IMG/VR virus record: IMGVR_UViG_3300024999_000036
DNA length: 64,000 bases
Direction: 5' to 3' (one strand)
Source: an uncultured virus (IMG/VR IMGVR_UViG_3300024999_000036)
Lineage: Duplodnaviria; Heunggongvirae; Uroviricota; Caudoviricetes
Shown here: piece by piece, positions 23,417 to 55,931 of the stretch
Layout: each line of letters starts with the position of its first letter
How positions within the stretch are numbered: position 1 is the stretch's first letter
The notes under the pieces: model-generated
Database searches by the model: none
What the model saw: only the letters and a program-made list of their open reading frames with translations
Told to the model about the DNA's origin: nothing
Translations under genes and position numbers: made by a program

Positions 23417-24301
23417 TTAAATAACTATATTACCATTTTTAATATCGTCTAATATTTCTTTCCTGCTATTTTTAACAGTAATACATTCAACTAGATTTCT
23501 TTTCTCATCATAAATCCATAATTCATGTTGCCAATAATATGTACCATCTTCATTATCAATTCTTTTTCTTTTTATTTTATAAGCTGGTTTTTCTTCTATG
23601 TATTTTTTATAATCTTCTTCACACCATAACATTATTTTATTATATTTGTCCTGTGTAAACTCTTTAAGATACCCTAATTGAAATAATTCTTCTATGGTTT
23701 TCGCTCTTTTTGAACTATTACATTGGGTGCATGAAGGGACACAATTTCTAACATCATTATACCCTTCGTGATCTACATGCTCTTTATGGAATTGATGATT
23801 ATTTTGTTTATATTGCTGTTCTAATGTCTTACCACAATAAGCACAAGTATAATTAAAATATTCTTGACACGATTTCCATTCTTTAGTTGATATGTCATGG
23901 TTTCTATGATTTTGTATGTATTGTTTAGTCTTTTCTGGATGGTCTTTTCTCCACTGTATCGTTAAATCTTTTGTTTTTATATAATTTTCCTTTTTATATG
24001 CCCTCCATGAATCTGTTTTCATATACCTTTTATATGATGCTTTAAAATTTTCTGGATTATCTTTTATCCATTGTGTTGCTCTTTTCTTTTCGCATTCAAT
24101 ACAACAATTAGACAATCCATCTCTTGAATTCTTGTCATTCTTATAAAAGTATTCTGTTGTAGATGGTTTATATGTATTACATACTGAGCATATTTTGTGA
24201 TCTACATCATAGATCAACCTATGCTCTTTTTCATATTTTAACCTTTTTCGCTCCTCCTGTCTTCTTTGTTTTTCTTTTGGTTCTAATTTTGAAAATGCCA
24301 T
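23417..24301 (-). CDS. HNH endonuclease
   Basis: CAYCG...EHV...N.VPSC..CN..K; N-terminal CxxC...F.....DGL...C..C. Confidence 0.85.
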   Translation of the reverse strand: MAFSKLEPKEKQRRQEERKRLKYEKEHRLIYDVDHKICSVCNTYKPSTTEYFYKNDKNSRDGLSNCCIECEKKRATQWIKDNPENFKASYKRYMKTDSWRAYKKENYIKTKDLTIQWRKDHPEKTKQYIQNHRNHDISTKEWKSCQEYFNYTCAYCGKTLEQQYKQNNHQFHKEHVDHEGYNDVRNCVPSCTQCNSSKRAKTIEELFQLGYLKEFTQDKYNKIMLWCEEDYKKYIEEKPAYKIKRKRIDNEDGTYYWQHELWIYDEKRNLVECITVKNSRKEILDDIKNGNIVI

Positions 24302-26573: not shown

Positions 26574-27059
26574 TAAAAAACCTCCTATATATATGTATTT
26601 TTGACATTGTGACATCTAGGGAACACCTCACCTAGTAGCTTGATTATTTGTTACTTAAGTCCGTTTTTGAAGTTAAGTTATTCTACCATATAGGGGATTT
26701 ATATGTCAATACTATTTTAGATATTTATTTTAGTATTCTTTAAAAAATATAGTCATATAGATAAATAAATAAGAGACTAAAAGCCTCCTATTTTAGATTA
26801 GATAACCTTAAAAATAATAACTAAATAATAACCATACAACCATAAAAATAATTGGATAAATACCCTAAAATCAATTCTAAGCACTCTAGCAAGCCCATAC
26901 CTGATATACACTTATCATTATACCCGATTCAATTTTCATCGGCCTTGTAGGGGATTCTGTGAGGTTGTTTTTGTGTTGGTATGAGGATTTTATAGAAGGG
27001 GAAAATAAAAAACCTGCTTTATAGTCCGTCAAGCAAATAAAAATACCTCATATGAGGTA

Positions 27060-30301: not shown

Positions 30302-30317
30302 TGTTCCACGTGGAACA
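30302..30317. other. parS: parS (Spo0J/ParB-binding) site
   Basis: perfect palindrome TGTTCCACGTGGAACA in intergenic DNA. Confidence 0.85.
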
Positions 30318-30949: not shown

Positions 30950-31771
30950 TTATGCTTGTTTAAGTTGTCTCATACCGTCTGCAAGTATCCAAAGAGCCTT
31001 GTTAAGTTTAACATTGTTGTCTATGCTTTGGACTTCTCTTGTTGTTGTTCTTTTTCCTGTCGCTGTCCTGCCTCTTAATCCACCTCTTATTATGTTTTCC
31101 TGTACCCTGTTAAAGTTTGACCAAAGATCAGGGTTTCTGTCTGCAATTCTTCTGGTTTGTAATAACTGGTTTGGAGTGATTGGTGCTTCATCATCATATT
31201 TTAAACTTAATGCTGCATTTGCAAATATTTGTTGCTCTTCCGGTAATAACAAGGTAGATTTCATTCCTTCGATAGATTCCGTGACCTGCTCAAAATCATC
31301 TACAATGGTATAAGCTGCATCTATTACGTTATGGACAATATTTCCCTTGTGTCTTACTCTGATATCTTCTACTATGTCACCAGTAACCATTCCATTTTGA
31401 CAGACAAATCTAAAACAACCTGCCATCATTTGGTAAGATGATGTACCGTCATGGGAATTGATTAAAATTATCTCATTTGCTTCTTGCTTTTCGATTTCTC
31501 CTGTTTGGCGTAAGCGTAACATGTGCTTTGTAAATTCGGATTTTCCTTCGATTCTGGATCTGGATTGTGCAACGAAAAATGGTTCAAATCCTTCTTTTCT
31601 GAGACCGTCAAGAACATCAATAGTAGGTATGTAAGTATAACGGCTTGACCTTGATTCGTGAGCCTCATTTGCAAAAATTGAAGGTGCTATGCGGAATAGT
31701 TGAGAATTGTCTAAAGGAATATTACTTCTTAATGCGTTACTGTTTTTACCGAAACGTGTTGCTAATGCCAT
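30950..31771 (-). CDS. DUF932 (DUF945) family protein
   Basis: HESRS.RYTYIPT, FTKHMLRLR, NSHDGTSSYQM..G.FRFVC.NG, FNRVQEN, N..LNKALW. Confidence 0.9.
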   Translation of the reverse strand: MALATRFGKNSNALRSNIPLDNSQLFRIAPSIFANEAHESRSSRYTYIPTIDVLDGLRKEGFEPFFVAQSRSRIEGKSEFTKHMLRLRQTGEIEKQEANEIILINSHDGTSSYQMMAGCFRFVCQNGMVTGDIVEDIRVRHKGNIVHNVIDAAYTIVDDFEQVTESIEGMKSTLLLPEEQQIFANAALSLKYDDEAPITPNQLLQTRRIADRNPDLWSNFNRVQENIIRGGLRGRTATGKRTTTREVQSIDNNVKLNKALWILADGMRQLKQA

Positions 31772-32929: not shown

Positions 32930-33589
32930 TTAAGCTGTATATAATTTCATCTCGTATTCGTTCAATTCCTTTTTGGTTAGTTCCCTGTTATATCCAACTA
33001 TTCCCCATTTACCCTTGTTATTGTCTATCCCTATAAAATCCCTTGGTTGACAACCAGGAGAAGGGGATCTGAATTTTAACTCATACCAGTATATATTGCT
33101 TTTATTTTTCCATTTTTCGAATTCTTTTTCGGCCTTGTATTCTGATATGAATTTTTTGTATAATTCCAGTTCGGTCAATTGTTCTTTTAATTTTTCGTTC
33201 TCTTCCTGCAATTTACTGTCAATAGGATTATTCCAATAATGTATATTGTCGGTGTAATCTTCAAACAATGTATTATTGTTATCGTCAACAATCTCAGTGT
33301 AAATATCATAGGTTTCTATAGTTTTATGAATACCTTTTTTAACTAGAAGTGATACAAAATAACTGGCTGTCAATACTTCAGATAAGGTATTATAATTATA
33401 TTCACGTTGATCAAGTTCGTTGGATAGTTTGAGACATAGTTTATATTTTACTGTTGTATTAGTATTGCCATATTGCCGGATATTATCTTTTATAGAATTT
33501 AGGGACATTCTTATTACTTGTTTTTGAATCTCAGGATATTTATAAGATTGTAGATCGTTGTAGATGTTACCAGTGTTTTTAATTGTCAT
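32930..33589 (-). CDS. protein with C-terminal DarA_C-like (defence-against-restriction) domain
   Basis: YWYELKFRSPSPGCQP...WGIVGYNRELTKKEL.EYEM. Confidence 0.6.
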   Translation of the reverse strand: MTIKNTGNIYNDLQSYKYPEIQKQVIRMSLNSIKDNIRQYGNTNTTVKYKLCLKLSNELDQREYNYNTLSEVLTASYFVSLLVKKGIHKTIETYDIYTEIVDDNNNTLFEDYTDNIHYWNNPIDSKLQEENEKLKEQLTELELYKKFISEYKAEKEFEKWKNKSNIYWYELKFRSPSPGCQPRDFIGIDNNKGKWGIVGYNRELTKKELNEYEMKLYTA

Positions 33590-33906
33590 TGTTGTATGAC
33601 CTCCTTTTTGTGGTTGGTGATATGTAAAATAATTTGACAAGATAATTATATCAAATTAGCATTTGAATGTCTATAAGTTTAGGGTATTTGTTAGGATTAT
33701 TTATTTTATTGTTTTTAACAGTGTTAACTGTGCAACTATATTATAAATTATGTCTTCATAGGAAGTTGAATAAGGGTAGTTAAATTAGTTTTAAGTAGGA
33801 TAGGATGTAGTGTTTGAGGATGGGAACGTGGGAGGGATTATTGGATATAGTTTGATATATGGGAGCTGTGGGAGAAAAGGGGAAAGAAAAAACCCTCTTA
33901 AGAGGG

Positions 33907-34822: not shown

Positions 34823-34838
34823 TGTTCTACGTGGAACA
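34823..34838. other. parS: parS site (1 mismatch)
   Basis: TGTTCTACGTGGAACA in intergenic DNA. Confidence 0.75.
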
Positions 34839-35582: not shown

Positions 35583-36227
35583 TTATAAAGATTTAATCAG
35601 CTTAACCATTTGTTCGTTACGTTTATACATTTTACCTTTTTTATCTCCTATCAGTTTTAAAACCGTATCAGTAAACAAACAAGCAAAATTTTCTTTTCCG
35701 TTCTTTTCTGCGTATTTTTCTTTTCCTTCCTTGTCAAATCTAAAAGATTTATGGTTAAATATTACATCATGGATCTGGTGTGCTATTTCGTGGATAACCG
35801 TTTTAACTTCTGCATTGGCTTTAATGTAAATTTGTTTAAAATCTGAGAAATAAACACCTTCCCAAGCGGTTCTAACTGAGCAAAATTGTAGTTTATCCAT
35901 AGTTTGGATATTTAGGGTTATTCTATTTGTTATGCCAGGAAAAACTGTATTTATCTTATCTATTCCTTGCTGAATTGTTTCTGTTAAATTGTCTGTTAAG
36001 GTTGTAAAAGGATTGCTATTATTATTTAATTCTATTTTTTGCAGTTTGCACCAACGATCCCGGCTAAAATCTTCAGTTCCTGTGTTTATTATTTCGTCTG
36101 ATTCGCTGTCTAGTATTACATATGATACGTTTAGCATTTCTATAGTGTTTAATGGTTGTGCATTGTATCTTACCCAGCCTTGACTTGCTATGTAAACTTC
36201 TTTGATGTCTCCGTATACTCTTGTCAT
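35583..36227 (-). CDS. HExxH zincin metallopeptidase-like protein
   Basis: TVIHEIAH.I...YA..N..ENFA..F. Confidence 0.7.
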   Translation of the reverse strand: MTRVYGDIKEVYIASQGWVRYNAQPLNTIEMLNVSYVILDSESDEIINTGTEDFSRDRWCKLQKIELNNNSNPFTTLTDNLTETIQQGIDKINTVFPGITNRITLNIQTMDKLQFCSVRTAWEGVYFSDFKQIYIKANAEVKTVIHEIAHQIHDVIFNHKSFRFDKEGKEKYAEKNGKENFACLFTDTVLKLIGDKKGKMYKRNEQMVKLIKSL

Positions 36228-36799: not shown

Positions 36800-37366
36800 T
36801 TATAGTTCAACCTCTTTTAATATCTCTATTTGATTATTATTGAATACTATTACTGTTAATTCCTGCTGATTTAAGAAATCTTTCAGATCCTCATAACCTG
36901 TGATATAATCTTCTCTATCATAAGAATTAACACTATATAAATCTAACCCGTTGTATTCAGTATCTATTTTTAACTTATACTTATGACCTCTTGGTGTTTG
37001 ATATATTGTTTCACCAGTTGTATATAATTCCTGTTCGTTTACTTTAGGTATATCATTAAATATTATTCCGTCATAACCTAGAGATTTTAAATTGATTCTT
37101 ACTACATCACATAGACTTCTATAACCTTCTAAATCTGTATTTCTTAATTCTTTTGCAAGTTTATTTATAATATTATGCGGTGCTGGATTGTTTAAGGTTA
37201 CAATACATTCTTTGAGATAGTTTGCTTTTCTGAATGAAGGAGAAGTATTCTTCTTACTAGAGAACCAAAAACCATTATAAAGAGCGTCTGTCTCGTTAGC
37301 TTTGATTTTATTTTCATTAAAGTATGTAAAGGATTCAGTTGAAGCATGGTATAGAGTGTATTTCAT
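36800..37366 (-). CDS. ADP-ribosyltransferase-like protein (ART-PolyVal type)
   Basis: LYHAS...F..F, GFWFS, LNNP, LGYDGII, IVFNNNQI. Confidence 0.7.
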   Translation of the reverse strand: MKYTLYHASTESFTYFNENKIKANETDALYNGFWFSSKKNTSPSFRKANYLKECIVTLNNPAPHNIINKLAKELRNTDLEGYRSLCDVVRINLKSLGYDGIIFNDIPKVNEQELYTTGETIYQTPRGHKYKLKIDTEYNGLDLYSVNSYDREDYITGYEDLKDFLNQQELTVIVFNNNQIEILKEVEL

Positions 37367-37746: not shown

Positions 37747-37762
37747 TGTTCCACGTAGAACA
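37747..37762. other. parS: parS site (1 mismatch)
   Basis: TGTTCCACGTAGAACA in intergenic DNA. Confidence 0.75.
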
Positions 37763-39490: not shown

Positions 39491-39760
39491 CTATTCATTC
39501 CTACTATTATACCCTAAAAACCATAATAAACTACCACAAAACACTCCAAATCCATAACATATATATCCAATACTCTTAAATAACATTCCTAATCCTACCC
39601 CTAATACACTATTCTCTACATCACCAATTATTAACCCAGCTATTGAAAACAATGACAAACTTAACATAGATGATATATACATTATATTTTTAACATTTAC
39701 ACTAACATTGCTAACATTACTTCTACTGTTTATATTTAATTTATCTGTACCTTCTATCAT
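39491..39760 (-). CDS. two-TM membrane protein
   Basis: hydrophobic helices; AAGGAG RBS. Confidence 0.6.
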   Translation of the reverse strand: MIEGTDKLNINSRSNVSNVSVNVKNIMYISSMLSLSLFSIAGLIIGDVENSVLGVGLGMLFKSIGYICYGFGVFCGSLLWFLGYNSRNE

Positions 39761-40177
39761 TTAATTTATCTCCTTTTTAAATTTATATTATTATAACCGT
39801 CAAAATTAAATTTTATTCTTACTATTATTTTCCTTTATAATTATATTAATATTAACTAATAAATGAATCAATCAACTAAATGGGGCGTACTTTTACAATT
39901 CATACTTTTCACACTACTCCCCCTCTACGTTCACCTCAATTTTTACTCATAAAACATACCAATTAATTATGTTTCACATAATCTTCTTAGTCTTATTTGA
40001 TTTATAAAGTAATTAATAGGATTTAACTGTATTTTTCGTATTTTCTACAATACGTATTATAACTCATATTGTAATATATATTCTCATTCATATTCTTACC
40101 CATATTCTTACTAATCTCTAATATTATTATCTACTAATGTACAGACTATACTCATACTAAAAAAACAAATAAAAAAT

Positions 40178-40921
40178 TCAACCATTTCTGATTGAATCAA
40201 ATAAATACTTTTTAATTTCACTTACAGTTATAACAATAAATTTTAACTTATCTCCAACTTCCTTTCCTATACTTTTATCAAACACTCTAAATTCTATATT
40301 ATCTCTCTCAACATACTCTAACACCTTCAACTTCTTCTTATCATTATTACAAACAATCAATATATGTGGGAATCTCTTAACTCTATCATACCAAAACTCA
40401 CCCTTATAATTGTTACTCCTATAAATATCAACATAATCTTTAATCTTAGTAAATTTATTTCTACTCTCTACTCTATCACTTTCAATTATCACATATCTAA
40501 ATTCATTGGTAACATAATTTCTAAATCCAATTATACCATCTGGTCTTTTGCCACATCCCATAACATACTCATTTCTAATATCTACAAACTTATAATATTC
40601 TTTAAATTTATACATATATAAATTATAAATATATCCCCAATTTCTATTTGTATCATGCTCTAGAAACTTAGGTTTCTTATCTATAAAATAAATTCTATGT
40701 TCGTTTATATCTAATCTCACACTATTAATTTTTTCTTTTTTTAATATAATTCTCAATCTCTCTCTACACTTAACTATTCCATGTTTTATATCAGTAAAAA
40801 ATAAATAATATATCTGCTCAGTATTTAAACATTCAAACATCTCAATTGTATCTACTATACACCTATCTCGGTAATAACCTTTTTGTCTCGTATTCATATA
40901 TTTGAAATTGTTCTCCAACAT
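40178..40921 (-). CDS. replication-relaxation family protein (wHTH + PD-(D/E)xK)
   Basis: RD..I......L.T.QI..LFF; RPDG...IIESDR...KI..Y...FP.ILIV; overlaps FtsK gene. Confidence 0.75.
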   Translation of the reverse strand: MLENNFKYMNTRQKGYYRDRCIVDTIEMFECLNTEQIYYLFFTDIKHGIVKCRERLRIILKKEKINSVRLDINEHRIYFIDKKPKFLEHDTNRNWGYIYNLYMYKFKEYYKFVDIRNEYVMGCGKRPDGIIGFRNYVTNEFRYVIIESDRVESRNKFTKIKDYVDIYRSNNYKGEFWYDRVKRFPHILIVCNNDKKKLKVLEYVERDNIEFRVFDKSIGKEVGDKLKFIVITVSEIKKYLFDSIRNG

Positions 40922-42152
40922 ACCTATCATCACCTTTAATCTTCTTATCAAACATTTTTAATCTCAATATAGCTTCTTCTTGTTCTAATAACATTGCTTG
41001 CAATTCCATTTGTTTGCTACCTAATTGAAATATCATTCTACCTTTTATATTTGGCAAATAATAAGCATCTGTATTTCCTAATACAGTCATAGATGTACCA
41101 TAGTTAACACATTTAAATGATATTGCACATGGAAAATTACTCTTTATCTCCATAGGAATTAATTTATCTGATGGTCTTTGCATTGCTATAATTAAATGTA
41201 CCCCAGTCTTTGCACTTATCATTCCTAAATCTGCACATATACTTTGCAATCTTTGTCTTCTAGTCTTTGTTACTTTATCATCACTTTTTCTAGGAGATGT
41301 AAAAGCAAATTCATCTATAATTAACACAATATAATTTAATTTATTATTAGGATTTTTTTCATTGTATTTAATAAGATTTACACAATTATTCTGAACAAGA
41401 AAATATCTTCTTTTTTCTACTTCTTGCATTAAATATTCCAATATTATCTCTGCACTGTCTAAATTATATCCAAATACAACATAATCTTTTAAATGTACAA
41501 AATCAGTCATTGCTAAATCTGTAACAAATAAATCAACATTATTATTTTGCATTAAAGCATCACAAATTCCAGTTAACAAAATACTTTTACCTGATCTTGT
41601 AACACCACCAATCATTATATGTGGAACTTTTGCCAAATCTACAATTATAGGTATACCATTAACACTAACACCTATAGGGATAGGTATACATTTATCAATA
41701 TACTCAATATAATTAAAGTTATATCTATATAATTCAGGTATAATTCCTTTAATAACTTCTACCATTAATAATCCTCTTCTATTTTCTATATTAACATGTG
41801 CAATCATAGAATCAGAGAAATATTTAACCTTATCTATAATAGTTTTATAATTTAATCCATATGGTAATTTAAACATTACTTGATAATGATAATCATTAAC
41901 TTTACTAGTAGCAATATGATATGGGTATTCACCTCTGGAATTATAACAATTAGTTTGTATAAATACATTCTCTATCTCTGCTTCTATCTCTCTACCTTTC
42001 CTATTCCTAATTAATTTCTTAATTGTAGTTTTAAAGTCTTCTGGTTTCTTTTCTTTAAGCGGATTATATGATAATTGTTGCAAATACTTATTAAAATTTT
42101 CTTTAAAATTACTCTTATCTTTTTTATCATTTTTCTTTTTCTTATCTACCAT
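40863..42152 (-). CDS. FtsK/SpoIIIE-family ATPase
   Basis: PHIMIGGVTRSGKS, IVLIIDEFA, GVHLIIAMQRP, L...KGR. Confidence 0.9.
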   Translation of the reverse strand: MVDKKKKNDKKDKSNFKENFNKYLQQLSYNPLKEKKPEDFKTTIKKLIRNRKGREIEAEIENVFIQTNCYNSRGEYPYHIATSKVNDYHYQVMFKLPYGLNYKTIIDKVKYFSDSMIAHVNIENRRGLLMVEVIKGIIPELYRYNFNYIEYIDKCIPIPIGVSVNGIPIIVDLAKVPHIMIGGVTRSGKSILLTGICDALMQNNNVDLFVTDLAMTDFVHLKDYVVFGYNLDSAEIILEYLMQEVEKRRYFLVQNNCVNLIKYNEKNPNNKLNYIVLIIDEFAFTSPRKSDDKVTKTRRQRLQSICADLGMISAKTGVHLIIAMQRPSDKLIPMEIKSNFPCAISFKCVNYGTSMTVLGNTDAYYLPNIKGRMIFQLGSKQMELQAMLLEQEEAILRLKMFDKKIKGDDRYVGEQFQIYEYETKRLLPR

Positions 42153-42736
42153 TTAAACCACCTTCCTGACTTTTCTCTTGAAATATAATCCTTAAATCCT
42201 TTAATCCTATCAACTACACCTTTTTTAATATTATTGCTACCTTTAATACTATGAATATAATCAGTTACAGCATCTATACTTTTTCTGCATATCTCCTTAT
42301 CTATATCACTCATATTGCCTGATCCTATTTTGCGTGTAATATTAACCTCATCAACACCATTTTTAATTATAATCTCTATACTTCCAGGTGTTTTATCATC
42401 AGTAATTCTAGTATTTTCATTTGATTTTTCTTCTTTTTTATTTATATTATGTTCTTTTTGCTCATTATATTGTTTATTCTCATTAATCTCTTTGCTCTCA
42501 TTATAACTTTTATTTTCGTTATAAGTTTTCTCGCTAATACCACTTCCACTATCATCTACTCTAACTATTAAAGGCAACTTCTTATCCTCGATAATTAAAT
42601 CACCATAAAATTGACTATTCTCATGTCTATAAATTTTAGTATCAATATAACCATTTTTAAATAACAAATTAAAATTAAACATAACAAACATTGCCATTAT
42701 ACCTACTACAAATTTGTTAACTATTACAGTTTGCAC
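42146..42736 (-). CDS. membrane-anchored hypothetical protein
   Basis: N-terminal TM; charged low-complexity linker. Confidence 0.7.
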   Translation of the reverse strand: MQTVIVNKFVVGIMAMFVMFNFNLLFKNGYIDTKIYRHENSQFYGDLIIEDKKLPLIVRVDDSGSGISEKTYNENKSYNESKEINENKQYNEQKEHNINKKEEKSNENTRITDDKTPGSIEIIIKNGVDEVNITRKIGSGNMSDIDKEICRKSIDAVTDYIHSIKGSNNIKKGVVDRIKGFKDYISREKSGRWFKW

Positions 42737-42764
42737 ATAATCACTCCTTTTATTACTATTGCTA

Positions 42765-43151
42765 TTATCTTGTTCTTGGATATTCAGTTAGTTTTTGAAA
42801 AAACCAGTTATCAGGAATATTCTCATCTATTATTTTATCTATTGGCTTCTTTGCTTCATTTTGGTTATATAATTTACTATTAGGATCAATATATTTTTTT
42901 GCATTTTCTATTCTATTTTCAATATACTTTTGTTTTTCTTGTTCAATTTCAATAATAGGTATTACTTTTTCCATAACAATATTTAAACTAGCAAGTATGG
43001 TTATTACTACTATCATCTTTGCCATATATCTATTAGATAAAACTTTACAAATAATATAACCAACGAATCCTAATATAAATTGTATCATTAATTGTGGTAA
43101 GCATAAGCAAGTTATAGCAAATATTAAAATTGGTATTATAATTAAATACAT
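42765..43151 (-). CDS. membrane protein, SpoIIIAC/AD-like hairpin
   Basis: IICKVLSNRYMAKMIVVITILASL..V...V.PII. Confidence 0.55.
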   Translation of the reverse strand: MYLIIIPILIFAITCLCLPQLMIQFILGFVGYIICKVLSNRYMAKMIVVITILASLNIVMEKVIPIIEIEQEKQKYIENRIENAKKYIDPNSKLYNQNEAKKPIDKIIDENIPDNWFFQKLTEYPRTR

Positions 43152-43162
43152 TTTATCATCTC

Positions 43163-43450
43163 CTAAAAATATGCTAATAATTTATTTACTATCTCAAATC
43201 CTTTGTTTACCATAATTAAAGTAGCAACAAATGTAGCAACTATTCCTACTAATATAGCAAAATTATTTTCACCTATTATTTTACATATTTGTTTTCCTAT
43301 AAAAGCAGCAACAGCACAACCAACAATTAATAATATTGCAAATCCGTCTTTACCTACTCCAACGGTTTCTCTCATTAGTCCAGTAACAGTCATTGCATAA
43401 CAAGGTAAGGGATATATTAAACAAATTAACAATATAATTATTCTACTCAT
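43163..43450 (-). CDS. membrane protein, SpoIIIAC/AD-like, with signal peptide
   Basis: GKQICKIIGENNFAILVGIVATFV....V...F..V..LL..F. Confidence 0.6.
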   Translation of the reverse strand: MSRIIILLICLIYPLPCYAMTVTGLMRETVGVGKDGFAILLIVGCAVAAFIGKQICKIIGENNFAILVGIVATFVATLIMVNKGFEIVNKLLAYF

Positions 43451-43453
43451 TAC

Positions 43454-43726
43454 TTATTCCTCCAATTTTGAATTAATAAATTTCTGTGCAACATCATCAC
43501 CAACATTCACTATCTCTTTAACATTTTTAAATTGCTTATTCAATTCATCAAAACAACCAATATTATTCATATAAAATATTTCATCTGCTTTAAATTCTTC
43601 TTTAATAAATTCTTCTATAACTTCTCTAGGTAAATATCTTACTTTCATTAAATCATCAATTAAATCAGTAATATCTAATGTTACTCCTTCATTGTTAGAA
43701 TTGTACCATAATAAGTAAGTTTTCAT
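43454..43726 (-). CDS. hypothetical protein
   Basis: GGAGG RBS before ATG 43726. Confidence 0.65.
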   Translation of the reverse strand: MKTYLLWYNSNNEGVTLDITDLIDDLMKVRYLPREVIEEFIKEEFKADEIFYMNNIGCFDELNKQFKNVKEIVNVGDDVAQKFINSKLEE

Positions 43727-43727
43727 A

Positions 43728-43931
43728 TTACACCTCCCAACTTGCTTTAATATTTTCCAATATATTATCTGGCATAATTTCAATAAATGATTCACAGATA
43801 CCTAATAATGCAAAACAAGCATCTATAACTTTATCATATTTTTCTTCTATATCTATGTCATTATTAGCATCTAATTCATTTAATTGATTATTTGTAAACT
43901 CACAGAATTGTTTATATTCTTCCTTTTTCAT
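43728..43931 (-). CDS. hypothetical protein
   Basis: AGGAGG RBS. Confidence 0.65.
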   Translation of the reverse strand: MKKEEYKQFCEFTNNQLNELDANNDIDIEEKYDKVIDACFALLGICESFIEIMPDNILENIKASWEV

Positions 43932-43961
43932 TTATATATCCTCCTTTAAAATTATAATTAT

Positions 43962-44267
43962 TTACTCTGGAAAATTCCATTTAATAATATCTTTTGATTT
44001 ATTGATCTCTGTTTTTTTATTAATCTGTCTAACTTCAATGTCATCTTTATCCGTATTGGATGCAGGTGTTTCATTAGTAACAACAACATTAGTATCAACA
44101 CTCTCCAATTCTTCCACAAATACATCTTCTACTTCACGTTTCCGATAAACTAAACTATCTCTTAGTATTTTTCTAATAACTTGTGATAAATTTTTTTCTT
44201 TATACTTTTCTAATTGCCTTATTAATTCTGTATCATATTCTCTGTTTAGTTTAAAAGATATTCGCAT
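43962..44267 (-). CDS. ribbon-helix-helix DNA-binding protein
   Basis: MRISFKLN...D.ELI..L....NLSQVIRKILR. Confidence 0.7.
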   Translation of the reverse strand: MRISFKLNREYDTELIRQLEKYKEKNLSQVIRKILRDSLVYRKREVEDVFVEELESVDTNVVVTNETPASNTDKDDIEVRQINKKTEINKSKDIIKWNFPE

Positions 44268-44298
44268 TTTCTCTCACTCCTTTTTGATTTAATTTTAA

Positions 44299-44352
44299 GT
44301 CTTAATAATCGTCTTATAGAACGTCTTAAATATAGTCAGTAGAATCGTCTTA
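44299..44352. repeat. 12-bp-phased GTCTTA direct repeats (operator or centromere-like)
   Basis: GTCTTA at 44299, 44311, 44323, 44347; degenerate GTCAGT at 44335. Confidence 0.75.
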
Positions 44353-44554
44353 ACTCTTAATTCAAATGTATTGTTGAATTAATTAATTTAGAATATATTT
44401 ATTATTGTCAATATATAGAAATATAAAATTCAAAAATGTCTTACTATAATATATTTATTTTATTATTCCTATTGACTACAATAAATAATTATGGTAATAT
44501 ATATCTAACAACATACATAATATATAAAATAAAAACTTAAAGGAGAGATTTTTT

Positions 44555-45624: not shown

Positions 45625-45936
45625 ATATAATTTTTATTGTTTTTTATTTACTATAAAATTATATGTTGACTTTTATTTTACTATTGTGTATAATATGTAT
45701 AAGAAAAATATCTGTATTTTTGGGAGGTGAAAATTTTGATATGTATATTTGTATTGCTTTTATTTTTATAGATAAGTAGATGGTAATTTATTAATTATAT
45801 ATATTATTATAATTGTGTTGTAAATGTAGGTAAAATTTTAATATAAGGATCGTACTAATAGGGGACGAGGTATGGAAGATAAGATGTACTAAAGCATCAA
45901 CAAACTACTGATATACAAGGGTTTCAAAATTTATAA

Positions 45937-46051
45937 TTCCGCTATTTGTGGAATAATATTAGAATTAAAGATAGTAGCATATAAGAGTTATTTAAAGTAT
46001 GAGAAAGATATATTAAGATAACTTAACTAAATTAACTTTCCGCTATTTGTG
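45937..46051 (+). repeat. 14-bp direct repeat TTCCGCTATTTGTG x2
   Basis: exact copies at 45937 and 46038 upstream of the RepL-like gene. Confidence 0.7.
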
Positions 46052-46080
46052 TAAAAAATATACTAAAAGGAGAAAATATT

Positions 46081-46596
46081 ATGGCAAAGAAAATTAAAAA
46101 AGATCCAAAGTATAATGTTGTTGAAGTAGAATCCGGTGAATTAATTAATGTAATGTATCAAGGAGATAGAATCAGAAGAGAAGAACAAGACGAATTTGCA
46201 AAGAATAAAACATTATTAAATCCTAAAGAAGAATTTATTAAAGTATTTGTAAAACCTATACTTAAATTAAGCACTATGCTTACAAATCCTGAAGCATGGT
46301 TTGTAACTTATTTATTAAAATATTTAAATTATACTTCTGGTATATTAAAGAAAGATGATGGTTCATGTATTAATATTGATAATATTATGGATGAATGTGG
46401 TTTAAAACCTAGTTATACATATAAAATATTAAAAAGTTTATGTGATAAAGGTGTAATTGCAAAATGTAAAACAGAAGGTAAAATTTATTTTGCAATGAAT
46501 CCTTATATATTTATGAAAGGTAGATATGTAAATAATACTTTATTAGATTTATTTAAAAATACTCAATGGGTAAATATATTTAAGGAGGATAAATAA
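46081..46596 (+). CDS. RepL-like wHTH replication/maintenance protein
   Basis: V...SGE, FIKVF, HTH, Y.MNPYIFMKG. Confidence 0.7.
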   Translation: MAKKIKKDPKYNVVEVESGELINVMYQGDRIRREEQDEFAKNKTLLNPKEEFIKVFVKPILKLSTMLTNPEAWFVTYLLKYLNYTSGILKKDDGSCINIDNIMDECGLKPSYTYKILKSLCDKGVIAKCKTEGKIYFAMNPYIFMKGRYVNNTLLDLFKNTQWVNIFKEDK

Positions 46597-46598
46597 CA

Positions 46599-48524
46599 TT
46601 GGATTTTAACGAAAATCAGTTAAAAGCAATAAATCACTATGAAGGGAATTGCTGTGTGTTAGCTAGTGCAGGAAGTGGAAAGACAAGTGTATTAACAAAT
46701 AGAATAGTAAATCTTATTAATGTATATAAAGTAAATCCAAAAAATATTCTTGCTATTACATTTAGTGTTAAAGCAAGAGAAAATATGCAAAATAGATTAG
46801 CAAAATTAATAGGAGATAAAGTAAATCTCTTAACCATTGAGACTTTTCATGCTCTAGGAAATAAAATATTAAAAGAAAGTAAATATAATTATTACCACAA
46901 CAAAATAAAGCAATGGCAACAGAAACAATTTATAAATAATATTGTAGTTAAAACTCTTGGGATTGAAGTTAATGAAAAAGATGTGAATACTAAAGACATA
47001 ATATCTTTTATATCTTATCAAAAGAATAATTTGATAGATTGTGATGATGAATTAAAACCAACTACATATATGCCTTATAGGATTAATACAATGCAAGAAA
47101 TATATCAAAGGTATGAGACAACAAAGAAAAATGAAAAATTAATGGATTTTGATGATATGTTAATTAATACCTATAAATTATTACTTAATAATGATTCAGA
47201 AAGAGAAAAATATCAAGATAGATATAGATTTATCTCAAATGATGAATTTCAGGACACGAATTTAGCACAATATGAAATACTTAGATTATTAGGTAAGAAA
47301 CATAATAATGTCTTTGTGGTCGGTGACGGTCTTCAGTGTATTTATGAATGGAATTTAGCCAACAATGATTATATTATTGATTTTCATAAAGATTGGATTG
47401 ATACAACAGTAATTCCTCTTAATACTAATTATAGAAGTTCTCAAGATATTGTTGAATTATCTAATAAGTTAGTTAAGAATACAAAGGAAACTACACACGA
47501 ACATTATTATGAATCTATAGCAAACAAATCTAAATATAAATCACCTGAGTTTGCTTGTTTTGAAGATGAAGTAAGTGAATCTGATTATATTGCTAAAAAA
47601 ATACTTGAAATTAAAAATTCTGGAGGTAAGTTTTCTGATTTTGCTATCTTAACAAGAACAAATTATCAAATACAAGCAATTGAAAGAGGTTTATATAAGA
47701 ATAATATTCCATACGAAGTTATTGGAGGTACATTATTTTATGAACAGAAAGAGATAAAAGATATTTTGTCATATTTAAGATTAGTTGAAGATATTAATAA
47801 TGATGAAGCATTTAAGCAAATATATAATTCACCTAATAGGTATTTAGGAAATGTATTCCTAAATGAAGTAACTACATATTCTCAAAAATATAATAAATCG
47901 TTATTTACTAGTATGGTATCCTTCCCTAGAAGTAATGAATGGAGATATAAAAAAGGTATTAGTGAGATATGTGATATTGTTTCAAAAATTAAAAAGAAAA
48001 AGAAATATAAAGTTGGAGATTTAATAAATATCATAAGAAAAAACTTAGATTATGATAAATACATATTAAAAGAAGATACAGATAGTAATCTTAGAAGTGA
48101 AAAAATTGATAATTTAGATATTCTTGTTGTTTTAGCAAACAAATATAGTAGTATTGATAGTTTTCTTGAAGAAGTAGATAAATTATTAGGATTTTCTAAG
48201 GGTTCGGATAGTGATGATAAGGTTAAGGTGATGACCTGCCATCGGTCGAAAGGATTAGAATTTAAAATAGTATTTTTAGCAGGTGTTAATGATGGATTAC
48301 TCCCTCATGCTAAGTCAGACAATGAAGCAGAAGAAAGAAGATTATTTTATGTAGGTATGACTCGTGCGGAACAATTACTGTATATTATTTCTACTATGTA
48401 TTATGGCAATAAGGAGATGGGAATTAGTAAATTTATATTTGATATTTTTGATAAGAAATATGTAAAAAGCAGATATATTGGTGATATTGAAGAATTTGAA
48501 GATGAAGATTGGGAAGATAAATAA
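46599..48524 (+). CDS. UvrD/PcrA-family ATP-dependent DNA helicase
   Basis: ASAGSGKT, TFH, DEFQDTN, VGD..Q.IY, NYRS, H.SKGLEF, EERRLFYVGMTRA. Confidence 0.95.
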   Translation: MDFNENQLKAINHYEGNCCVLASAGSGKTSVLTNRIVNLINVYKVNPKNILAITFSVKARENMQNRLAKLIGDKVNLLTIETFHALGNKILKESKYNYYHNKIKQWQQKQFINNIVVKTLGIEVNEKDVNTKDIISFISYQKNNLIDCDDELKPTTYMPYRINTMQEIYQRYETTKKNEKLMDFDDMLINTYKLLLNNDSEREKYQDRYRFISNDEFQDTNLAQYEILRLLGKKHNNVFVVGDGLQCIYEWNLANNDYIIDFHKDWIDTTVIPLNTNYRSSQDIVELSNKLVKNTKETTHEHYYESIANKSKYKSPEFACFEDEVSESDYIAKKILEIKNSGGKFSDFAILTRTNYQIQAIERGLYKNNIPYEVIGGTLFYEQKEIKDILSYLRLVEDINNDEAFKQIYNSPNRYLGNVFLNEVTTYSQKYNKSLFTSMVSFPRSNEWRYKKGISEICDIVSKIKKKKKYKVGDLINIIRKNLDYDKYILKEDTDSNLRSEKIDNLDILVVLANKYSSIDSFLEEVDKLLGFSKGSDSDDKVKVMTCHRSKGLEFKIVFLAGVNDGLLPHAKSDNEAEERRLFYVGMTRAEQLLYIISTMYYGNKEMGISKFIFDIFDKKYVKSRYIGDIEEFEDEDWEDK

Positions 48525-48573: not shown

Positions 48574-49980
48574 TTGAAAAAAGTATTTTTAGATGATTTA
48601 CCTAAGAAGTATGGTTTTGGTGCAAATAAAGATAAACTGTGTATTAGTTGGAAAGAAAGTATAGGGCATAAAGTTAAATTTATTTATGATAATATAGTAG
48701 GTGAATTAGAAATAATTAATTATTATACAGAATCAAATCATGGTTATTTAGATATTAAATATAATAATAAAATAGTCAATATGGATACTGGTGCTTTTAT
48801 TAACTGTAGTATAGGAAATTTATTAAATAAAATTGTTACAGATTTTAGATATAATATTAATGATATAATTAATTTAAAATTTAGTAATATAAAAATATTA
48901 GAACAAATTAGAATTCCAAGTGGTAAATCAATATTGATGCATAAAGGATATGAATATGAATGTTTAAAATGTGGTAATAAAGATCGTGTACGAGAGAATG
49001 ATTTAAATGAAGGGAAAGGTTGTAATGTATGTTGTATTCCATCAAAGAAAATATTGATTGGTTATAATGATTTATGGACTACACATTTTAAAATAGCTAG
49101 TTTAATGAAATATCCACAAGATGGTTATGAAACAACTTCTGGAAGTGATAAATACAAAAAATTTATATGTCCTAATTGTAGATATGAAAAATCTTATCTT
49201 GTACACAATCTTATAAAATTTGGATTTAGTTGTCCAAAATGTGGTGATGGAATATCTTTCGCTAATAAAATAGGATTTAATTTATTAGAACAATTGGGAA
49301 TTAATTTTATACCTGAACATAAATTTTATAAATATAGATTTGATTTTTATTTTGAATTAGATTATAAAAAGTATGATTTAGAAATGGATGGGGCATTAGG
49401 ACATGGGAATTATAATACATTAAGTAAATTATCAGTAAAAGAAACAAAAGAAAATGATATTGAAAGAGATAATTTTACAAAAAAATATGAAATAGAAGTT
49501 ATAAGAATTGATTGTTTAAAATCAGATTTAGAATACATAAAAAATAATATATTATCTAGTCAATTAAATGAGTTATTTGATTTATCTAATATTGATTGGG
49601 ATAAATGTGAAGAATTTACTAATAAAAGTTTAGTAAAAATTGCATGTGATTATTGGAATAATGGTATTAAATCTAGTTTAGATATTTCCACAATAATGAA
49701 ATTAAGTAAACAAACAATTATATCATATCTTAAAAAAGGTGCAAATTTAGGATTTTGTGATTATAATGCATTTGATATCGGGAAAAGAAAAATAATTCAA
49801 TTAGATAAAAATAATATTTTAATATCAAGTTTTATATCTATGAATGAAGCAAGTAAAATAACTGGAATTGACCATAGGAGTATATCTTCTTGTTGTAGGG
49901 GGAAACAAAATATTGCTAAAGGTTTCAAATGGATGTACAAAGAAGACTATGAAGCAATGTTATTAAATAAAGCACAATAA
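48574..49980 (+). CDS. zinc-ribbon/PD-(D/E)xK homing-type endonuclease with C-terminal NUMOD1 domain
   Basis: CxxC ribbons, GYNDL.T, RFDFY...EMDG..H, F.S..EAS...GI....I..CC.G....GFKW.Y. Confidence 0.75.
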   Translation: MKKVFLDDLPKKYGFGANKDKLCISWKESIGHKVKFIYDNIVGELEIINYYTESNHGYLDIKYNNKIVNMDTGAFINCSIGNLLNKIVTDFRYNINDIINLKFSNIKILEQIRIPSGKSILMHKGYEYECLKCGNKDRVRENDLNEGKGCNVCCIPSKKILIGYNDLWTTHFKIASLMKYPQDGYETTSGSDKYKKFICPNCRYEKSYLVHNLIKFGFSCPKCGDGISFANKIGFNLLEQLGINFIPEHKFYKYRFDFYFELDYKKYDLEMDGALGHGNYNTLSKLSVKETKENDIERDNFTKKYEIEVIRIDCLKSDLEYIKNNILSSQLNELFDLSNIDWDKCEEFTNKSLVKIACDYWNNGIKSSLDISTIMKLSKQTIISYLKKGANLGFCDYNAFDIGKRKIIQLDKNNILISSFISMNEASKITGIDHRSISSCCRGKQNIAKGFKWMYKEDYEAMLLNKAQ

Positions 49981-53177: not shown

Positions 53178-55931
53178 TTGGCAAAATATCCACCACAAAG
53201 ATTTATATATAAAATCAATTCTACTAGATTAAGAAAATCAAAATGGAATTTAAATATTAATGTTGATGAAGCATCTGACAAAAATGAATTGGTTTCTTTA
53301 GCAGAAAGTGAATTAATTAGATTTATAGATATTATAAATAAAGTTAATACTAAATCTATATATAAAAAAGTTAATAATGTCTACAAAGATATAAATAAGA
53401 TAAAAAAATTATCTACTTCTATTGAAAATCGTAGAAAAATTAAATCATTGTATAATAAAAAATATGATTTATTATTGATAAAGGATTATGTTTGTATAGT
53501 AATAGATAACAATAAAGATTTTGATAGAATGAATGGGAAAAAATTATTTTATATTAATGGAGTTAAATTTAAACATTTACTAGGTACTCCAGGAGGGGTA
53601 AAGAAATATACAATAACTTATGTCAGTGAAAATGTTTATGATGAATTAGAAAAAAGAATAGATAATGGAAGAAATATAAATAATAAATTTATACCAGCAA
53701 AACTAGAATCATATAAATCTTTAGTTGCTTCTTCTAGTATTCCTGTGTCAGATCCAAAAGGAATACTAGTTGTAAATGATTGTATAACAAATTTTAAAGC
53801 AAATGTAATTAAAATAGATGATACTAAGTCAGAATATCCTGATATTACATATGAAAAAGATTATCCTATTGAATTAAATGATAGTGATGGTTATGGCATT
53901 ATCTCTCCAGAATTAAGTAGAAGATGGGTAAAAGAAATTAATAATGATAAAAGCATAGATGAAGAAGATAAAGAATATTTTATACCTAGTGGATATTGTC
54001 TGCGTAATTCTTTCTGTAAGGGCATGGTTTTTACCTTTGATTTTTTTTCATTTTCTGAAATAATTGCAAATAATAAATACATAGTTAAAGATGTTTGGAA
54101 TGAAGATAGAGATATTAGAAATATAGAATTAATTTTAACAACCTCAATGCTAAAATTATGGGATTCCTATGATTCACTTGAACATTATTTATCATGTTGT
54201 AATAATAATGGATATTCATTTAGTATTACAAAACATACACCTGAAGTATTGGAAAATGAACGGCATACAAATTATCAGTTTATACAATCTTTATATTTAG
54301 ATGATGAAGGTATCGAACAGTTAATTAAACCAACAATAGAAGAAATACATGATATTATTAGTAAAGATTATGGAAAAAGCATTTTATTTCTTAAAGGTAT
54401 TCATTTAGATAGTATGAATTTTGAAAATGAAGAAAATGATTTTATTAAAGCATTAATGATTGATAAAAGAATGATAGATGATCCCTTTGTTAAAAATAAA
54501 ATACATAATATGATAAAGAAGAAAATTAAAGATGCTAAGATAGGGGTATTAAAGACAAAGGCAAACTATTCTATTGTATCAGGAGATCCATTTAGTTTGT
54601 GCCAAAGTATATTTGGAATTGAAGCAACAGGGTTATTAAAAGAAGGAGAATTTTATTCTAAATACTGGAATGATTTAAATGTAAATAAAGTCGCTTGTTT
54701 TCGTGCTCCTATGACTTGTCATAATAATATTAGAATATTAAATTTAATTAATACAGATAAAGTTAATTATTGGTATAAGTATATGAAAACAGTTACAATC
54801 TTTAATTCTTGGGACACTACTGCTCATGCTCTAAATGGTCTCGATAAAGATGCAGATGCAGTATTTACCACAAATAACAAATATATCCTTAATTCTATTA
54901 AACCAACAGATGCAATATTTTGTGTACAGAAAACAGCAGATAAAATAATTCCTGAGAAAAAAGATTTTATAAAGTCAAATAAAGACGGTTTTGGTGATGA
55001 TATAGGAGTAACAACTAATCATATTACTTCTATGTTTGATGTATTAGCAAAATTTAAAGAAGGTAGTTTAGAATATAATACTGTATTAGATAGAATTATG
55101 TGTGGACAAAATTATCAGCAAAATGCGATAGATAAAATTAAAGGCATTGTTAGTAAAAAAATACCTAAAGAATGGTATGACTATCGTTCTGTTATCAGTG
55201 ATTTTGATAAAAGTATTGTAGCAAATAAAAAACCTTATTTTTTTAATTATATATATCCGTATAGAAAAAAAGTATATGATAGATATATAAGTCAAACAAA
55301 AAGTAATTGTCTTATGAGATTTGGATTAACGATAGATGAATTAATTGCTTTAGAAGATAAAACAAAAGAACAAGAAGATTTTATTAAATATTATTATTTA
55401 AAAATGCCAGTATCATTAAGTAAATCTGTAATGAATAGAATTTGTTGGAAAATTGAAGAAGAATTTGATAATTATAATTTAAATAATAGTGGTAATAGTA
55501 ACTTTGATTATTCAATATTAATGACTAATGTTAAGTATTCTAAAGGTAGATATGATGCTATTAATAAATTGTATCATGATTATATTGAAAAAACACAACA
55601 ATATTCTCAAAATATTAAAAGTAAAAGAATTGATAAAGAAGAAAGTAAGATACATAGAACAATTTTAAAAAATAGTTTTAAGAAAAAAGCATATGAGTTA
55701 TGTAGCAATACAGAAGAATTGTGTAATATTGTAATTAGTATTTGCTATAAAAATAATAACTCAAAACAATTTGCATGGGATATTTGCGGAGATGAAATTA
55801 TTAATAATTTATTAAAGAATAATAATTACAAAGTATCATACCCTATTATAAAAACAGATGGAAACATTGAGTTTGGTGGTAATAAATTTTCTATGATTAT
55901 GGAGGATATTAATGAAGATAATATTGAATGA
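53178..55931 (+). CDS. yonO: YonO-like single-subunit (double-psi beta-barrel) RNA polymerase
   Basis: 917 aa; DGYG, R..F.KG, NYQF.Q, FRAP, catalytic GLDKDAD, DIG..TN, Q..ID..KG. Confidence 0.85.
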   Translation: MAKYPPQRFIYKINSTRLRKSKWNLNINVDEASDKNELVSLAESELIRFIDIINKVNTKSIYKKVNNVYKDINKIKKLSTSIENRRKIKSLYNKKYDLLLIKDYVCIVIDNNKDFDRMNGKKLFYINGVKFKHLLGTPGGVKKYTITYVSENVYDELEKRIDNGRNINNKFIPAKLESYKSLVASSSIPVSDPKGILVVNDCITNFKANVIKIDDTKSEYPDITYEKDYPIELNDSDGYGIISPELSRRWVKEINNDKSIDEEDKEYFIPSGYCLRNSFCKGMVFTFDFFSFSEIIANNKYIVKDVWNEDRDIRNIELILTTSMLKLWDSYDSLEHYLSCCNNNGYSFSITKHTPEVLENERHTNYQFIQSLYLDDEGIEQLIKPTIEEIHDIISKDYGKSILFLKGIHLDSMNFENEENDFIKALMIDKRMIDDPFVKNKIHNMIKKKIKDAKIGVLKTKANYSIVSGDPFSLCQSIFGIEATGLLKEGEFYSKYWNDLNVNKVACFRAPMTCHNNIRILNLINTDKVNYWYKYMKTVTIFNSWDTTAHALNGLDKDADAVFTTNNKYILNSIKPTDAIFCVQKTADKIIPEKKDFIKSNKDGFGDDIGVTTNHITSMFDVLAKFKEGSLEYNTVLDRIMCGQNYQQNAIDKIKGIVSKKIPKEWYDYRSVISDFDKSIVANKKPYFFNYIYPYRKKVYDRYISQTKSNCLMRFGLTIDELIALEDKTKEQEDFIKYYYLKMPVSLSKSVMNRICWKIEEEFDNYNLNNSGNSNFDYSILMTNVKYSKGRYDAINKLYHDYIEKTQQYSQNIKSKRIDKEESKIHRTILKNSFKKKAYELCSNTEELCNIVISICYKNNNSKQFAWDICGDEIINNLLKNNNYKVSYPIIKTDGNIEFGGNKFSMIMEDINEDNIE

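Follow-up and report, generated by a model that had tools for sequence, protein, structure and literature searches.

What does a bacteriophage do with an FtsK-type DNA pump, a relaxase-like nuclease and a set of small membrane proteins that are all encoded in one operon? The question is raised by a 64,000-nucleotide stretch from an uncultured Caudoviricetes virus (IMG/VR record IMGVR_UViG_3300024999_000036; hereafter, the window), in which eight minus-strand open reading frames (ORFs) lie head to tail from 44267 to 40178, with gaps of 3–30 nt and two overlaps (Table 1). They encode a probable ribbon-helix-helix (RHH) regulator, two small accessory proteins, membrane proteins of 95 and 128 aa, a 196-aa protein, an FtsK-type ATPase and a protein, here called RR, that joins a winged helix-turn-helix (wHTH) to a PD-(D/E)xK nuclease fold. 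A first-pass annotation had described these genes as a single tightly coupled operon, with a parts list that proved accurate, and had gone on to read them as a sporulation-induced translocase of phage DNA. We retain the core of that interpretation, a membrane-associated DNA-translocase module with a DNA-binding nuclease, and drop every element of it that is specific to sporulation. In their place we propose, giving the idea about an even chance, a relaxosome-like, membrane-anchored pump that acts on the element's own DNA.

The same arrangement is found in six IMG/VR contigs (L001–L006), whose ATPases are 59–81% identical to that of the window, and for this reason we regard the operon as real and conserved. 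A divergently transcribed recombinase gene is followed in all six by the genes for the RHH, 95-aa, 128-aa and 196-aa proteins, the ATPase and RR, in that order; some relatives also encode an additional small hydrophobic protein or have an HTH gene inserted. Both overlaps in the window involve the ATPase gene: the stop of the 196-aa gene and the start of the ATPase gene share 7 nt, and the ATPase and RR genes share 68–89 nt, depending on the start chosen.

A pump and a relaxase-like nuclease from overlapping genes

The ATPase scores well above the Pfam threshold for its superfamily (PF01580, 54.6 bits against a cut-off of 24), displays GVTRSGKS and LIIDEF motifs and matches phrog_1358 at E 6.9e-56, in line with the FtsK/SpoIIIE assignment made at first pass. 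It has the motor domain with Walker motifs of FtsK/SpoIIIE proper, but neither the four-helix membrane domain nor the gamma domain (Ftsk_gamma, no Pfam match at E ≤ 1), and it reaches only 52.5 bits against the NCBIfam FtsK cut-off of 1566. Its best solved relatives are the 'DNA translocase coupling protein' entries 6o1z, 6o1x and 6o1w (E 1.6e-32; FtsK 2ius, 1.1e-13). The 6o1w–6o1z entries are TcpA of the Clostridium perfringens plasmid pCW3, a protein described as nearer to FtsK than to VirD4-type proteins (PMC12857230). The window ATPase and TcpA are 30.7% identical over 287 aa; TcpA, however, has two N-terminal membrane helices and sits in a full Tcp secretion locus. By hydropathy, the count of N-terminal hydrophobic helices is zero in the window ATPase, two in TcpA and one in the homologue of phage Gamma. 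The ATPase was not recognized as one of the TraB family (Streptomyces TraB/clt transfer system), the NCBIfam plasmid_TraB model giving E 9.6e-4 and 17.8 bits against a cut-off of 800, and a scan of genome contigs yielded nothing beyond the chromosomal FtsK genes of Bacilli with small genomes.

RR, encoded by the overlapping downstream gene, appears from its relatives to belong to the Replic_Relax/MobC family (PF13814). With a limit of E ≤ 1e-3, an exhaustive HMMER search collected 148 relatives; 81 of them were aligned, and PF13814 is matched at E ≤ 0.01 by 73 of these; RR of the window itself gives E 0.089 and 13.3 bits against a cut-off of 25.3. In the alignment (residues numbered on the 250-aa form), H92, D131 and E150 are invariant and K162 is nearly so, which makes D131, E150 and K162 the putative catalytic residues. 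An AlphaFold2 model (predicted local distance difference test, pLDDT, 93.7) retrieved PD-(D/E)xK nucleases in Foldseek, with FokI at the top (E 2.9e-4) followed by Cdn1, EcoRI, McrC and EndoMS. VIA-align placed residues 14–86 with winged helices (Z 8–9.2) and residues 88–250 with PaqCI and the nickase N.BspD6I (Z 7.9, a range that the tool flags as common). Profile relatives, model, Foldseek and VIA-align agree on the wHTH–PD-(D/E)xK reading that had been made from the letters.

PF13814 has been placed in the PD-(D/E)xK superfamily, with functional notes that trace to pUA140 and to MobC of CloDF13 (PMC3424549), and it has been used as the MobC relaxase family (PMC5357655). MOBC relaxases combine a PD-(D/E)xK fold with an N-terminal wHTH; TraX of pAD1 has such a wHTH and binds five direct repeats 70–120 bp from its nick site, and relaxosome accessory proteins are mostly RHH (PMC12857230). 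At the sequence level RR stands far from its named relatives: tblastn with RR gave no match in phages or plasmids, the RR type of locus L044 gave none in phages, and the Gamma-phage homologue is detectable by profile only (E 0.014 by profile search; E 0.0016 and probability 16% by hhalign).

A distant member of a published phage cassette

The operon has a counterpart in print. Pathria et al. (2012; PMC3357382) gave the name 'DNA translocation operon' to a set of genes (orf200/201/203/207) of phage 0305phi8-36, which infects B. thuringiensis. The set encodes a relaxase and, beside it, a coupling ATPase that has no membrane helices, the membrane anchors being proteins of their own. The paper gives an HHpred match of this relaxase family to CloDF13 MobC at E 4.4e-22 (3.9e-7 for the C-terminal domain alone), names partial homologues in SPO1 (gp27.3/27.4), GBSV1, Bacillus virus 1 and Gamma/Cherry/Fah/Wbeta, and notes a recombinase gene nearby in the temperate carriers. 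Its authors proposed virion-free, cell-to-cell propagation; for the related cassette of Bacillus phages, transfer between cells has thus been put forward in print as a hypothesis (PMC3357382).

The window operon shows each structural feature of that description. Its MobC-family relaxase-like protein adjoins a translocase ATPase, here from overlapping genes; its membrane proteins are separate from a helix-less ATPase, as judged by hydropathy and with anchoring predicted; and a recombinase gene adjoins it, divergently transcribed in the window, in L001–L006 and at loci L032 and L036. We therefore consider it a member, if a distant one, of a known kind: the window belongs to a large, Clostridium-type phage of groundwater origin, and its cassette is a divergent copy of the published Bacillus-phage one. 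The parts differ, in that the 0305phi8-36 ATPase is VirD4/AAA_10-like and its anchors VirB6- and MreB-like (PMC3357382), whereas the window has an FtsK-type ATPase, as does Gamma, and three small proteins of no known family. The window also adds an RHH gene with operator repeats that track its variants and a conserved array of five 12-bp repeats 3' of the nuclease gene; these and three parS-like palindromes are new.

The pairing of the two central genes is widespread. At 10/10 further non-redundant viral loci the RR gene comes immediately after, or overlaps, a gene of FtsK type, and the same adjacency is found in Clostridium phage c-st (CST193/CST194), in Gamma (GAMMAUSAM_0022/0023), for which the first-pass annotation had noted it, and in one phage recorded on S. 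aureus. In c-st and Gamma, as in the window, the ATPase gene precedes or overlaps the RR gene and small membrane proteins lie alongside. The c-st ATPase, however, is 621 aa long with a long low-complexity tail and is 23–25% identical to that of the window, its membrane proteins are encoded downstream, and RHH and recombinase genes are not adjacent; the Gamma ATPase (26% identity) carries an N-terminal hydrophobic helix of its own, unlike that of the window. A search for Gamma-type RR genes matched 105 phage records, 97 of them from Bacillus, 6 from Geobacillus and 2 with a Staphylococcus label, among them phages of B. pumilus and B. megaterium with the pair, and the FtsK-type ATPase occurs in 368, including 52 of Mycobacterium, 6 of Listeria and 5 of Ralstonia. 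As a side observation, the Staphylococcus phage MVC_VPHSA2 (L056) has its FtsK-type gene annotated in two pieces of 107 and 260 aa at 2645–4449, followed by a Replic_Relax-type 'replication initiation protein', and it holds the only clear pair that we saw in a phage whose recorded host is not a spore-former.

MOBC modules of plasmids (CloDF13 MobB/MobC; TraW/TraX of pAD1 and pTEF1) resemble the window in several respects: a coupling ATPase adjoins a PF13814 relaxase with wHTH and PD-(D/E)xK domains, direct repeats serve as a binding site, and anti-defence and SSB genes lie past the relaxase gene. The Enterococcus plasmid pTEF1, typed as MOBC, has a layout that the window mirrors: the coupling-protein gene is followed after a gap by that for a replication-relaxation protein, with AcrIIA9 and SSB beyond it. 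These modules differ from the window in their VirD4/TraG-type coupling protein and in sitting on plasmids with a known mating pore, and sequence comparison connects them to RR weakly or not at all.

The genomic position of the pair bears on a different idea, an injection-completion motor that RR would load and that would pull in the rest of a very long genome early in infection. A role in DNA injection was proposed by the authors who described phage Pony (PMC3853050); in c-st about 4 kb separate the pair from the right terminal repeat, and the window pair adjoins a same-strand block of anti-defence-type genes. In Gamma, however, the pair is mid-genome beside lysogeny genes, and no FtsK-type motor is known to us to drive injection, although no search aimed at one was made. 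The normal growth of the 0305phi8-36 deletion mutant (PMC3357382) also speaks against it, and we rate this explanation as very unlikely.

Repeats at both ends of the operon

The first gene of the operon encodes a 101-aa protein that is probably an RHH regulator. All family matches in its five-member alignment are to RHH-type models (DUF6290 in 4/5 members; RHH_9, RHH_1, RHH_3 and MobC_2 in 1/5 each), and a strand followed by two helices is the sequence pattern expected of RHH; every one of these matches is sub-threshold, though, and a profile search of the PDB with the family matched no RHH structure, so that the first-pass call stands only as a probable one. The leader carries TAAGAC four times, starting at 44352, 44328, 44316 and 44304 (spacing 24, 12 and 12 nt), and TRF reports a period of 12 at 44299–44329, which bears out the phased repeats noticed at first pass. 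TAAGAC is kept in the leader of L002, which has the closest RHH, and the same place is taken by ATTGTC repeats in L003 and by TGTCATACA repeats in L001 and L004. Repeats that vary with the RHH variant are what would be expected of operators co-evolving with their RHH.

At the other end, an array of five 12-bp repeats begins 68 nt 3' of the RR stop codon. The 5 × 12 register is shared by L001, L002, L003, L032 and L035; in L004 the automated register failed but the sequence aligns over the block, and in L034 there is no anchor. The array is a candidate binding site for RR, of a kind that might resemble either an origin of transfer (oriT) or a set of iterons. It lies in a non-coding block whose sequence, in the relative farthest from the window, has been kept better than that of the proteins on either side.

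Because a conserved cis-array adjoins RR, the protein would be expected to act on the element's own DNA, which argues against a role in prophage defence or superinfection exclusion, with a membrane-anchored ATPase and a nuclease directed at incoming foreign DNA. The composition of nuclease, ATPase and membrane proteins would suit such a system, the ATPase domain matches SspH (E 9.6e-25) and mad8 in PADLOC, and its PHROGs class is 'moron, auxiliary metabolic gene and host takeover'. The PADLOC matches are confined to the generic ATPase domain, however, and the other seven proteins of the operon find none; we consider defence highly improbable.

The iteron-like look of the array fits a further explanation, that the operon maintains a plasmid-prophage. 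RR would then initiate replication at the array, the ATPase would clear or segregate copies at the closing septum and, with the Xer-like recombinase, resolve multimers, and the membrane proteins would anchor the complex. This is doubtful. In its favour, the recombinase is conserved beside the operon, the Gamma-type homologue is labelled 'replication initiation protein' by RefSeq and other depositors, the c-st pair adjoins TubZ-like, ParB-like and UvrD-like genes, and GC skew changes sign where transcription diverges, at 44–46 kb. In RBClin15, a phage of B. tropicus, repA-like and parABS genes are located downstream of the pair (PMC11526630). Against these stand the existence of phage Pony, which has the pair plus a separate DnaA-like initiator (PMC3853050), and the fact that the only studied members of the family named in the literature reviewed are relaxases. 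The window, too, encodes a separate wHTH protein and a UvrD-like helicase with repeats of their own at 45928–46057. The domain that activates XerD in FtsK is Ftsk_gamma, the one for which the ATPase shows no match.

Small membrane proteins of a generic kind

The membrane partners are the part of the operon on which the sporulation reading turned. In the 95-aa family (24 aligned sequences), two long hydrophobic helices follow the PCYA motif, and in the 128-aa family DUF2232 is matched by 6/15 members (best E 7.2e-6). The 196-aa protein, which is clade-specific and has zero family matches, continues from its N-terminal helix through an N/K/E-rich linker of variable length to a small conserved C-terminal domain. 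With profiles of the first two families, neighbours of the pair are found elsewhere: the 95-aa profile matches neighbours of FtsK/RR in L044 (7.7e-16) and L041 (2.4e-4) and, among 9 proteins, CST196 of c-st (4.7e-6), and the 128-aa profile matches a neighbour of RR in L044 (1e-16). Gene order differs from that of the window, with the membrane proteins downstream of RR in L044 and upstream in L041. On the evidence of these profile matches, the association of the 95- and 128-aa proteins with the FtsK/RR pump is solid.

The first-pass annotation had seen a resemblance to SpoIIIAC and SpoIIIAD in these two proteins and had inferred a sporulation-induced translocase that moves phage DNA across a septum or into the forespore, or between cells as Streptomyces TraB does. 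In the sporulation version of this reading, SpoIIIAC/AD-like subunits of a sigmaE-induced translocase would make the channel through the septum, with the parS sites as an aid. A faint signal exists: the SpoIIIAC model (PF06686) gives sub-threshold matches, counted at E ≤ 10, in 8/24 relatives of the 95-aa protein (best E 0.013) and in 2/15 of the 128-aa family (best 0.33). An Atlas structure search with Atlas's own model of the 95-aa protein returned SpoIIIAC/AD as the nearest named clusters (template-modelling (TM) scores 0.82 and 0.75, by query). The two window proteins themselves, however, have no match to PF06686 at E ≤ 10, the L002 copies of the two reach 13.9 and 13.4 bits where the cut-off is 24, and the same model also gives hits in 8/14 control genomes, E. 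coli among them. The Atlas model is poor (pLDDT 0.63), with a Na/Ca-exchanger fragment scoring nearly as well (TM 0.74). A better model of the 95-aa protein (pLDDT 80.6) finds generic helical hairpins only (best Z 7.6). Searching with the 95-aa family profile gave 36 matches, none of them with a Pfam label, and the Atlas structure search with the 128-aa protein found nothing.

In our judgement the likeness to SpoIIIAC/AD (the A-Q channel) is that of any small helical-hairpin membrane protein, and the analogy appears to rest on this generic look. The window 95-aa protein differs in its signal-peptide-like N-terminus, and its context is a phage, not a spoIIIA operon. Nor did the promoter hold up: the string TTCTAAA-N14-AATACATT, taken for a sigmaE promoter, is present in the leader, but the aligned positions differ in four relatives. 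A sigma-70 scan was uninformative (80 sites against 68.4 expected), and none of the best 60 of the 80 sites lies in the leader.

Two observations compatible with the sporulation reading deserve separate mention. The bias toward spore-forming hosts is real in this phage database, with 103/105 records of the Gamma-type RR from Bacillus or Geobacillus and a Clostridium as the host of c-st, but it is inseparable from phylogeny, and the phage recorded on S. aureus has the pair. The nearby parS sites that had been pointed out are there as well, as three parS-like palindromes 2.4–10 kb downstream of the operon, each within 1–2 mismatches of what we take to be the chromosomal parS consensus. Scanning with this presumed consensus at ≤3 mismatches gave 10 strand-matches against 1.4 expected, a number that 0/100 shuffles reached. 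Exact copies occur in two of three related records (two in G002, one in G003) and in neither G001 nor c-st. ParA or ParB was not found among the window proteins scanned, and the element may for that reason borrow host ParB/Spo0J. We rate a channel into the forespore as unlikely.

Two other identities were tried for the small proteins and rejected. The idea that the 95-aa protein is a VirB2/TrbC-type protein (PMC9658697) found no TrbC among the families listed for its 24 members at E ≤ 10, and tblastn with it against phages found nothing. Comparison with pCW3 proteins showed no similarity of the small proteins to TcpD, TcpE or TcpC.

A proposed mechanism

What we observed are gene content, folds, conservation, repeats and homology links; the account that follows, of what is bound, cut and pumped and of where the DNA goes, is inferred throughout. 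The RHH protein would bind the phased leader repeats and set expression of the operon by autoregulation. RR would recognize the downstream array of five 12-bp repeats and nick or cut nearby, as MobC-family relaxases do, by analogy with TraX, and would pass the DNA to the hexameric FtsK-type ATPase encoded by the overlapping upstream gene. Since this ATPase has no membrane helices of its own, the 95- and 128-aa proteins and, in this clade, the 196-aa protein may hold it at the membrane. The module could then pump the element's own DNA across a membrane barrier. The DNA would most likely take a cell-to-cell route, either one borrowed from the mating pore of a helper or one used directly, as with CloDF13 MobB/MobC; less probably, the barrier would be the septum of division or sporulation.

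Several results weigh against this proposal. In a tree of 18 FtsK-type proteins the ATPase groups, with good support, with four further proteins from viral contigs and is not joined to TcpA; TcpA and TcpB stand apart, and the backbone is unresolved. Because of this we regard the ATPase as an FtsK-superfamily pump of a phage clade and not as a TcpA member. The RR profile matches the MOBC-typed replication-relaxation protein of pTEF1 weakly (E 0.019, wHTH part only; hhalign probability 12%) and matches no ORF of CloDF13. The array could equally be a plain operator, since it lies just upstream of a promoter-like box in the relatives. A VirB4-like gene (PF12846) was found in 0/3 related viral records, which are 53–71% complete, and in none of 65 further window proteins scanned, so any mating pore would need to be supplied by a helper. 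Mobilizing a resident element makes little sense for the B. pumilus and B. megaterium phages, which we take to be lytic. In streptococcal integrative and mobilizable elements, Coluzzi et al. (PMC5357655) found no case of a TcpA-type coupling protein together with a MobC relaxase. Deletion of the 0305phi8-36 operon caused no growth defect (PMC3357382), and our literature search found no other experiment on an FtsK/Replic_Relax pair.

A bolder version, which we offer only tentatively, is that a large phage-plasmid could use the cassette to spread in a second way that needs no virions, with the membrane-anchored pump exporting its DNA into a neighbouring cell or a forespore. RR would nick beside the array, and the anti-defence block 3' of the array would enter the recipient first, like the leading region of a plasmid. 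Phage early regions are rich in anti-defence genes too, and for this reason the likeness to a leading region is only suggestive. Plasmid leading regions are described as rich in anti-defence genes (PMC11541004). If this version were true, a widespread phage cassette, present itself or as a relative in hundreds of phage records to judge by its ATPase, would be a working minimal conjugation or mobilization system and would provide a hidden transfer route for Bacillus and Clostridium phages and phage-plasmids. To this group the window adds a distant, clostridial-type lineage, cis-sites (the 5 × 12-bp array and the RHH operators) and defined membrane partners.

Features of the operon and its surroundings

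Table 1. Position and supporting evidence of the operon genes, the repeats and the neighbouring features in the window
Feature	Position	Strand	Evidence or remark
Tyrosine recombinase, Xer-like, 289 aa	44555..45424	+	Pfam Phage_integrase E 4.8e-31
Leader repeats, probable RHH operator	44299..44360	-	TAAGAC x4, 12-nt phasing
Probable RHH regulator, 101 aa	43962..44267	-	Five-member alignment, sub-threshold Pfam
67-aa protein, variable accessory gene	43728..43931	-	No family match
~90-aa protein, variable accessory gene	43454..43726	-	113-aa ORF reaches 43795
95-aa membrane protein	43163..43450	-	Signal-peptide-like N-terminus ending PCYA, long helical hairpin
128-aa membrane protein	42765..43151	-	About three hydrophobic helices and a charged tail (hydropathy, 15-sequence alignment)
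196-aa protein	42146..42736	-	One N-terminal hydrophobic helix (hydropathy, 8-sequence alignment)
FtsK/SpoIIIE-superfamily ATPase, 429 aa	40863..42152	-	Pfam FtsK_SpoIIIE E 1.3e-14
RR, wHTH and PD-(D/E)xK protein, 250 aa from Met-8	40178..40930	-	257-aa ORF starts at 40951
Five 12-bp phased repeats, core AATATG, then TTGTAGAAAATA	40039..40110	-	Repeat search, TRF period 12
Remainder of conserved non-coding block	39761..40038	-	Promoter-like box (relatives), hairpin after GACTAAGAAG, GTACGCCCC
89-aa two-helix membrane protein, conserved downstream neighbour	39491..39760	-	Hydropathy
parS-like 16-bp palindromes TGTTCCACGTGGAACA, TGTTCTACGTGGAACA, TGTTCCACGTAGAACA	30302-30317, 34823-34838, 37747-37762
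ART-PolyVal	36800-37366	-	Domain match
DarA_C	32930-33640	-	Domain match
DUF932	30950-31771	-	Domain match
GmrSD_N	25407-26615	-	Domain match
HNH	23417-24301	-	Domain match
LPD29	16830-18767	-	Domain match
Dam + DUF4942	14654-16264	-	Domain match

The two accessory genes between the RHH and 95-aa genes vary among the relatives. The 67-aa protein has no tblastn match in L001–L006, and the 113-aa ORF that includes the second gene is matched only in L003 (78% over residues 23–112), where the homologue is a 90-aa ORF whose start corresponds to the internal Met at 43726. Downstream of the operon, the 89-aa protein is matched by tblastn or phmmer in L001–L003, L032, L035 and L036. In the non-coding block between this gene and the array, the stem sequence of a short hairpin differs between the window and L001–L003, and GTACGCCCC is invariant. 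A structured RNA was considered for the block and rejected, Rfam having no family for it at E ≤ 1 (one chance snoRNA row fell elsewhere).

Further downstream, the minus-strand run from 14654 to 37366 encodes domains typical of the anti-restriction or 'polyvalent' proteins of phages and conjugative elements, and the anti-defence-type genes 3' of RR on its strand are those with ART-PolyVal, DarA_C, DUF932, GmrSD_N, LPD29 and Dam/DUF4942 domains. An HEIAH motif lies within the ORF at 35583–36227.

On the other side of the leader, the recombinase scores E 8.3e-37 and 127 bits against the NCBIfam XerC cut-off of 335 and, among 12 pCW3 proteins, resembles TcpM (23% identity over 266 aa, E 8.6e-4). 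A block at 44460–44510, 45–95 nt 5' of the recombinase start, is conserved in 5/5 aligned loci; the inverted repeat GTAGAATAATTCTAC that it holds in the relatives is a possible operator or site of recombinase action. Two copies of CCGCTATTTGTG follow at 45928–45956 and 46029–46057, 101 bp apart and just 5' of a gene for a 171-aa, weakly winged-helix protein (46081–46596), after which come a UvrD-type helicase gene (46599–48524) and, directly 3' of it, a 468-aa ORF (48574–49980) with a NUMOD1 domain and matches to homing-endonuclease PHROGs. The pair of CCGCTATTTGTG copies is a possible operator or origin, located where transcription and GC skew diverge.

The window as a whole has the gene content of a large tailed phage and a G+C content of 22–31%. 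Up to about 44.3 kb the genes lie, essentially without exception, on the minus strand, from 44.5 kb onward they all lie on the plus strand, and the sign switch of GC skew coincides with this divergence of transcription at 44–46 kb. Megablast against phages and plasmids found zero close DNA relatives. The stretch is present in 9 metagenome runs from groundwater, sediment and soil; 0/9 are RNA runs, and no expression data were found for the operon. The nearest sequenced phage overall is c-st, through a YonO-like protein of 917 aa that is 44.7% identical to a split YonO homologue of that phage and has weaker matches in Enterocloster and in SPbeta-type Bacillus phages. The YonO-like gene of the window (53178–55931) is one unbroken ORF, and the c-st homologue is annotated as an N-terminal and a C-terminal piece with a separate ORF in between.

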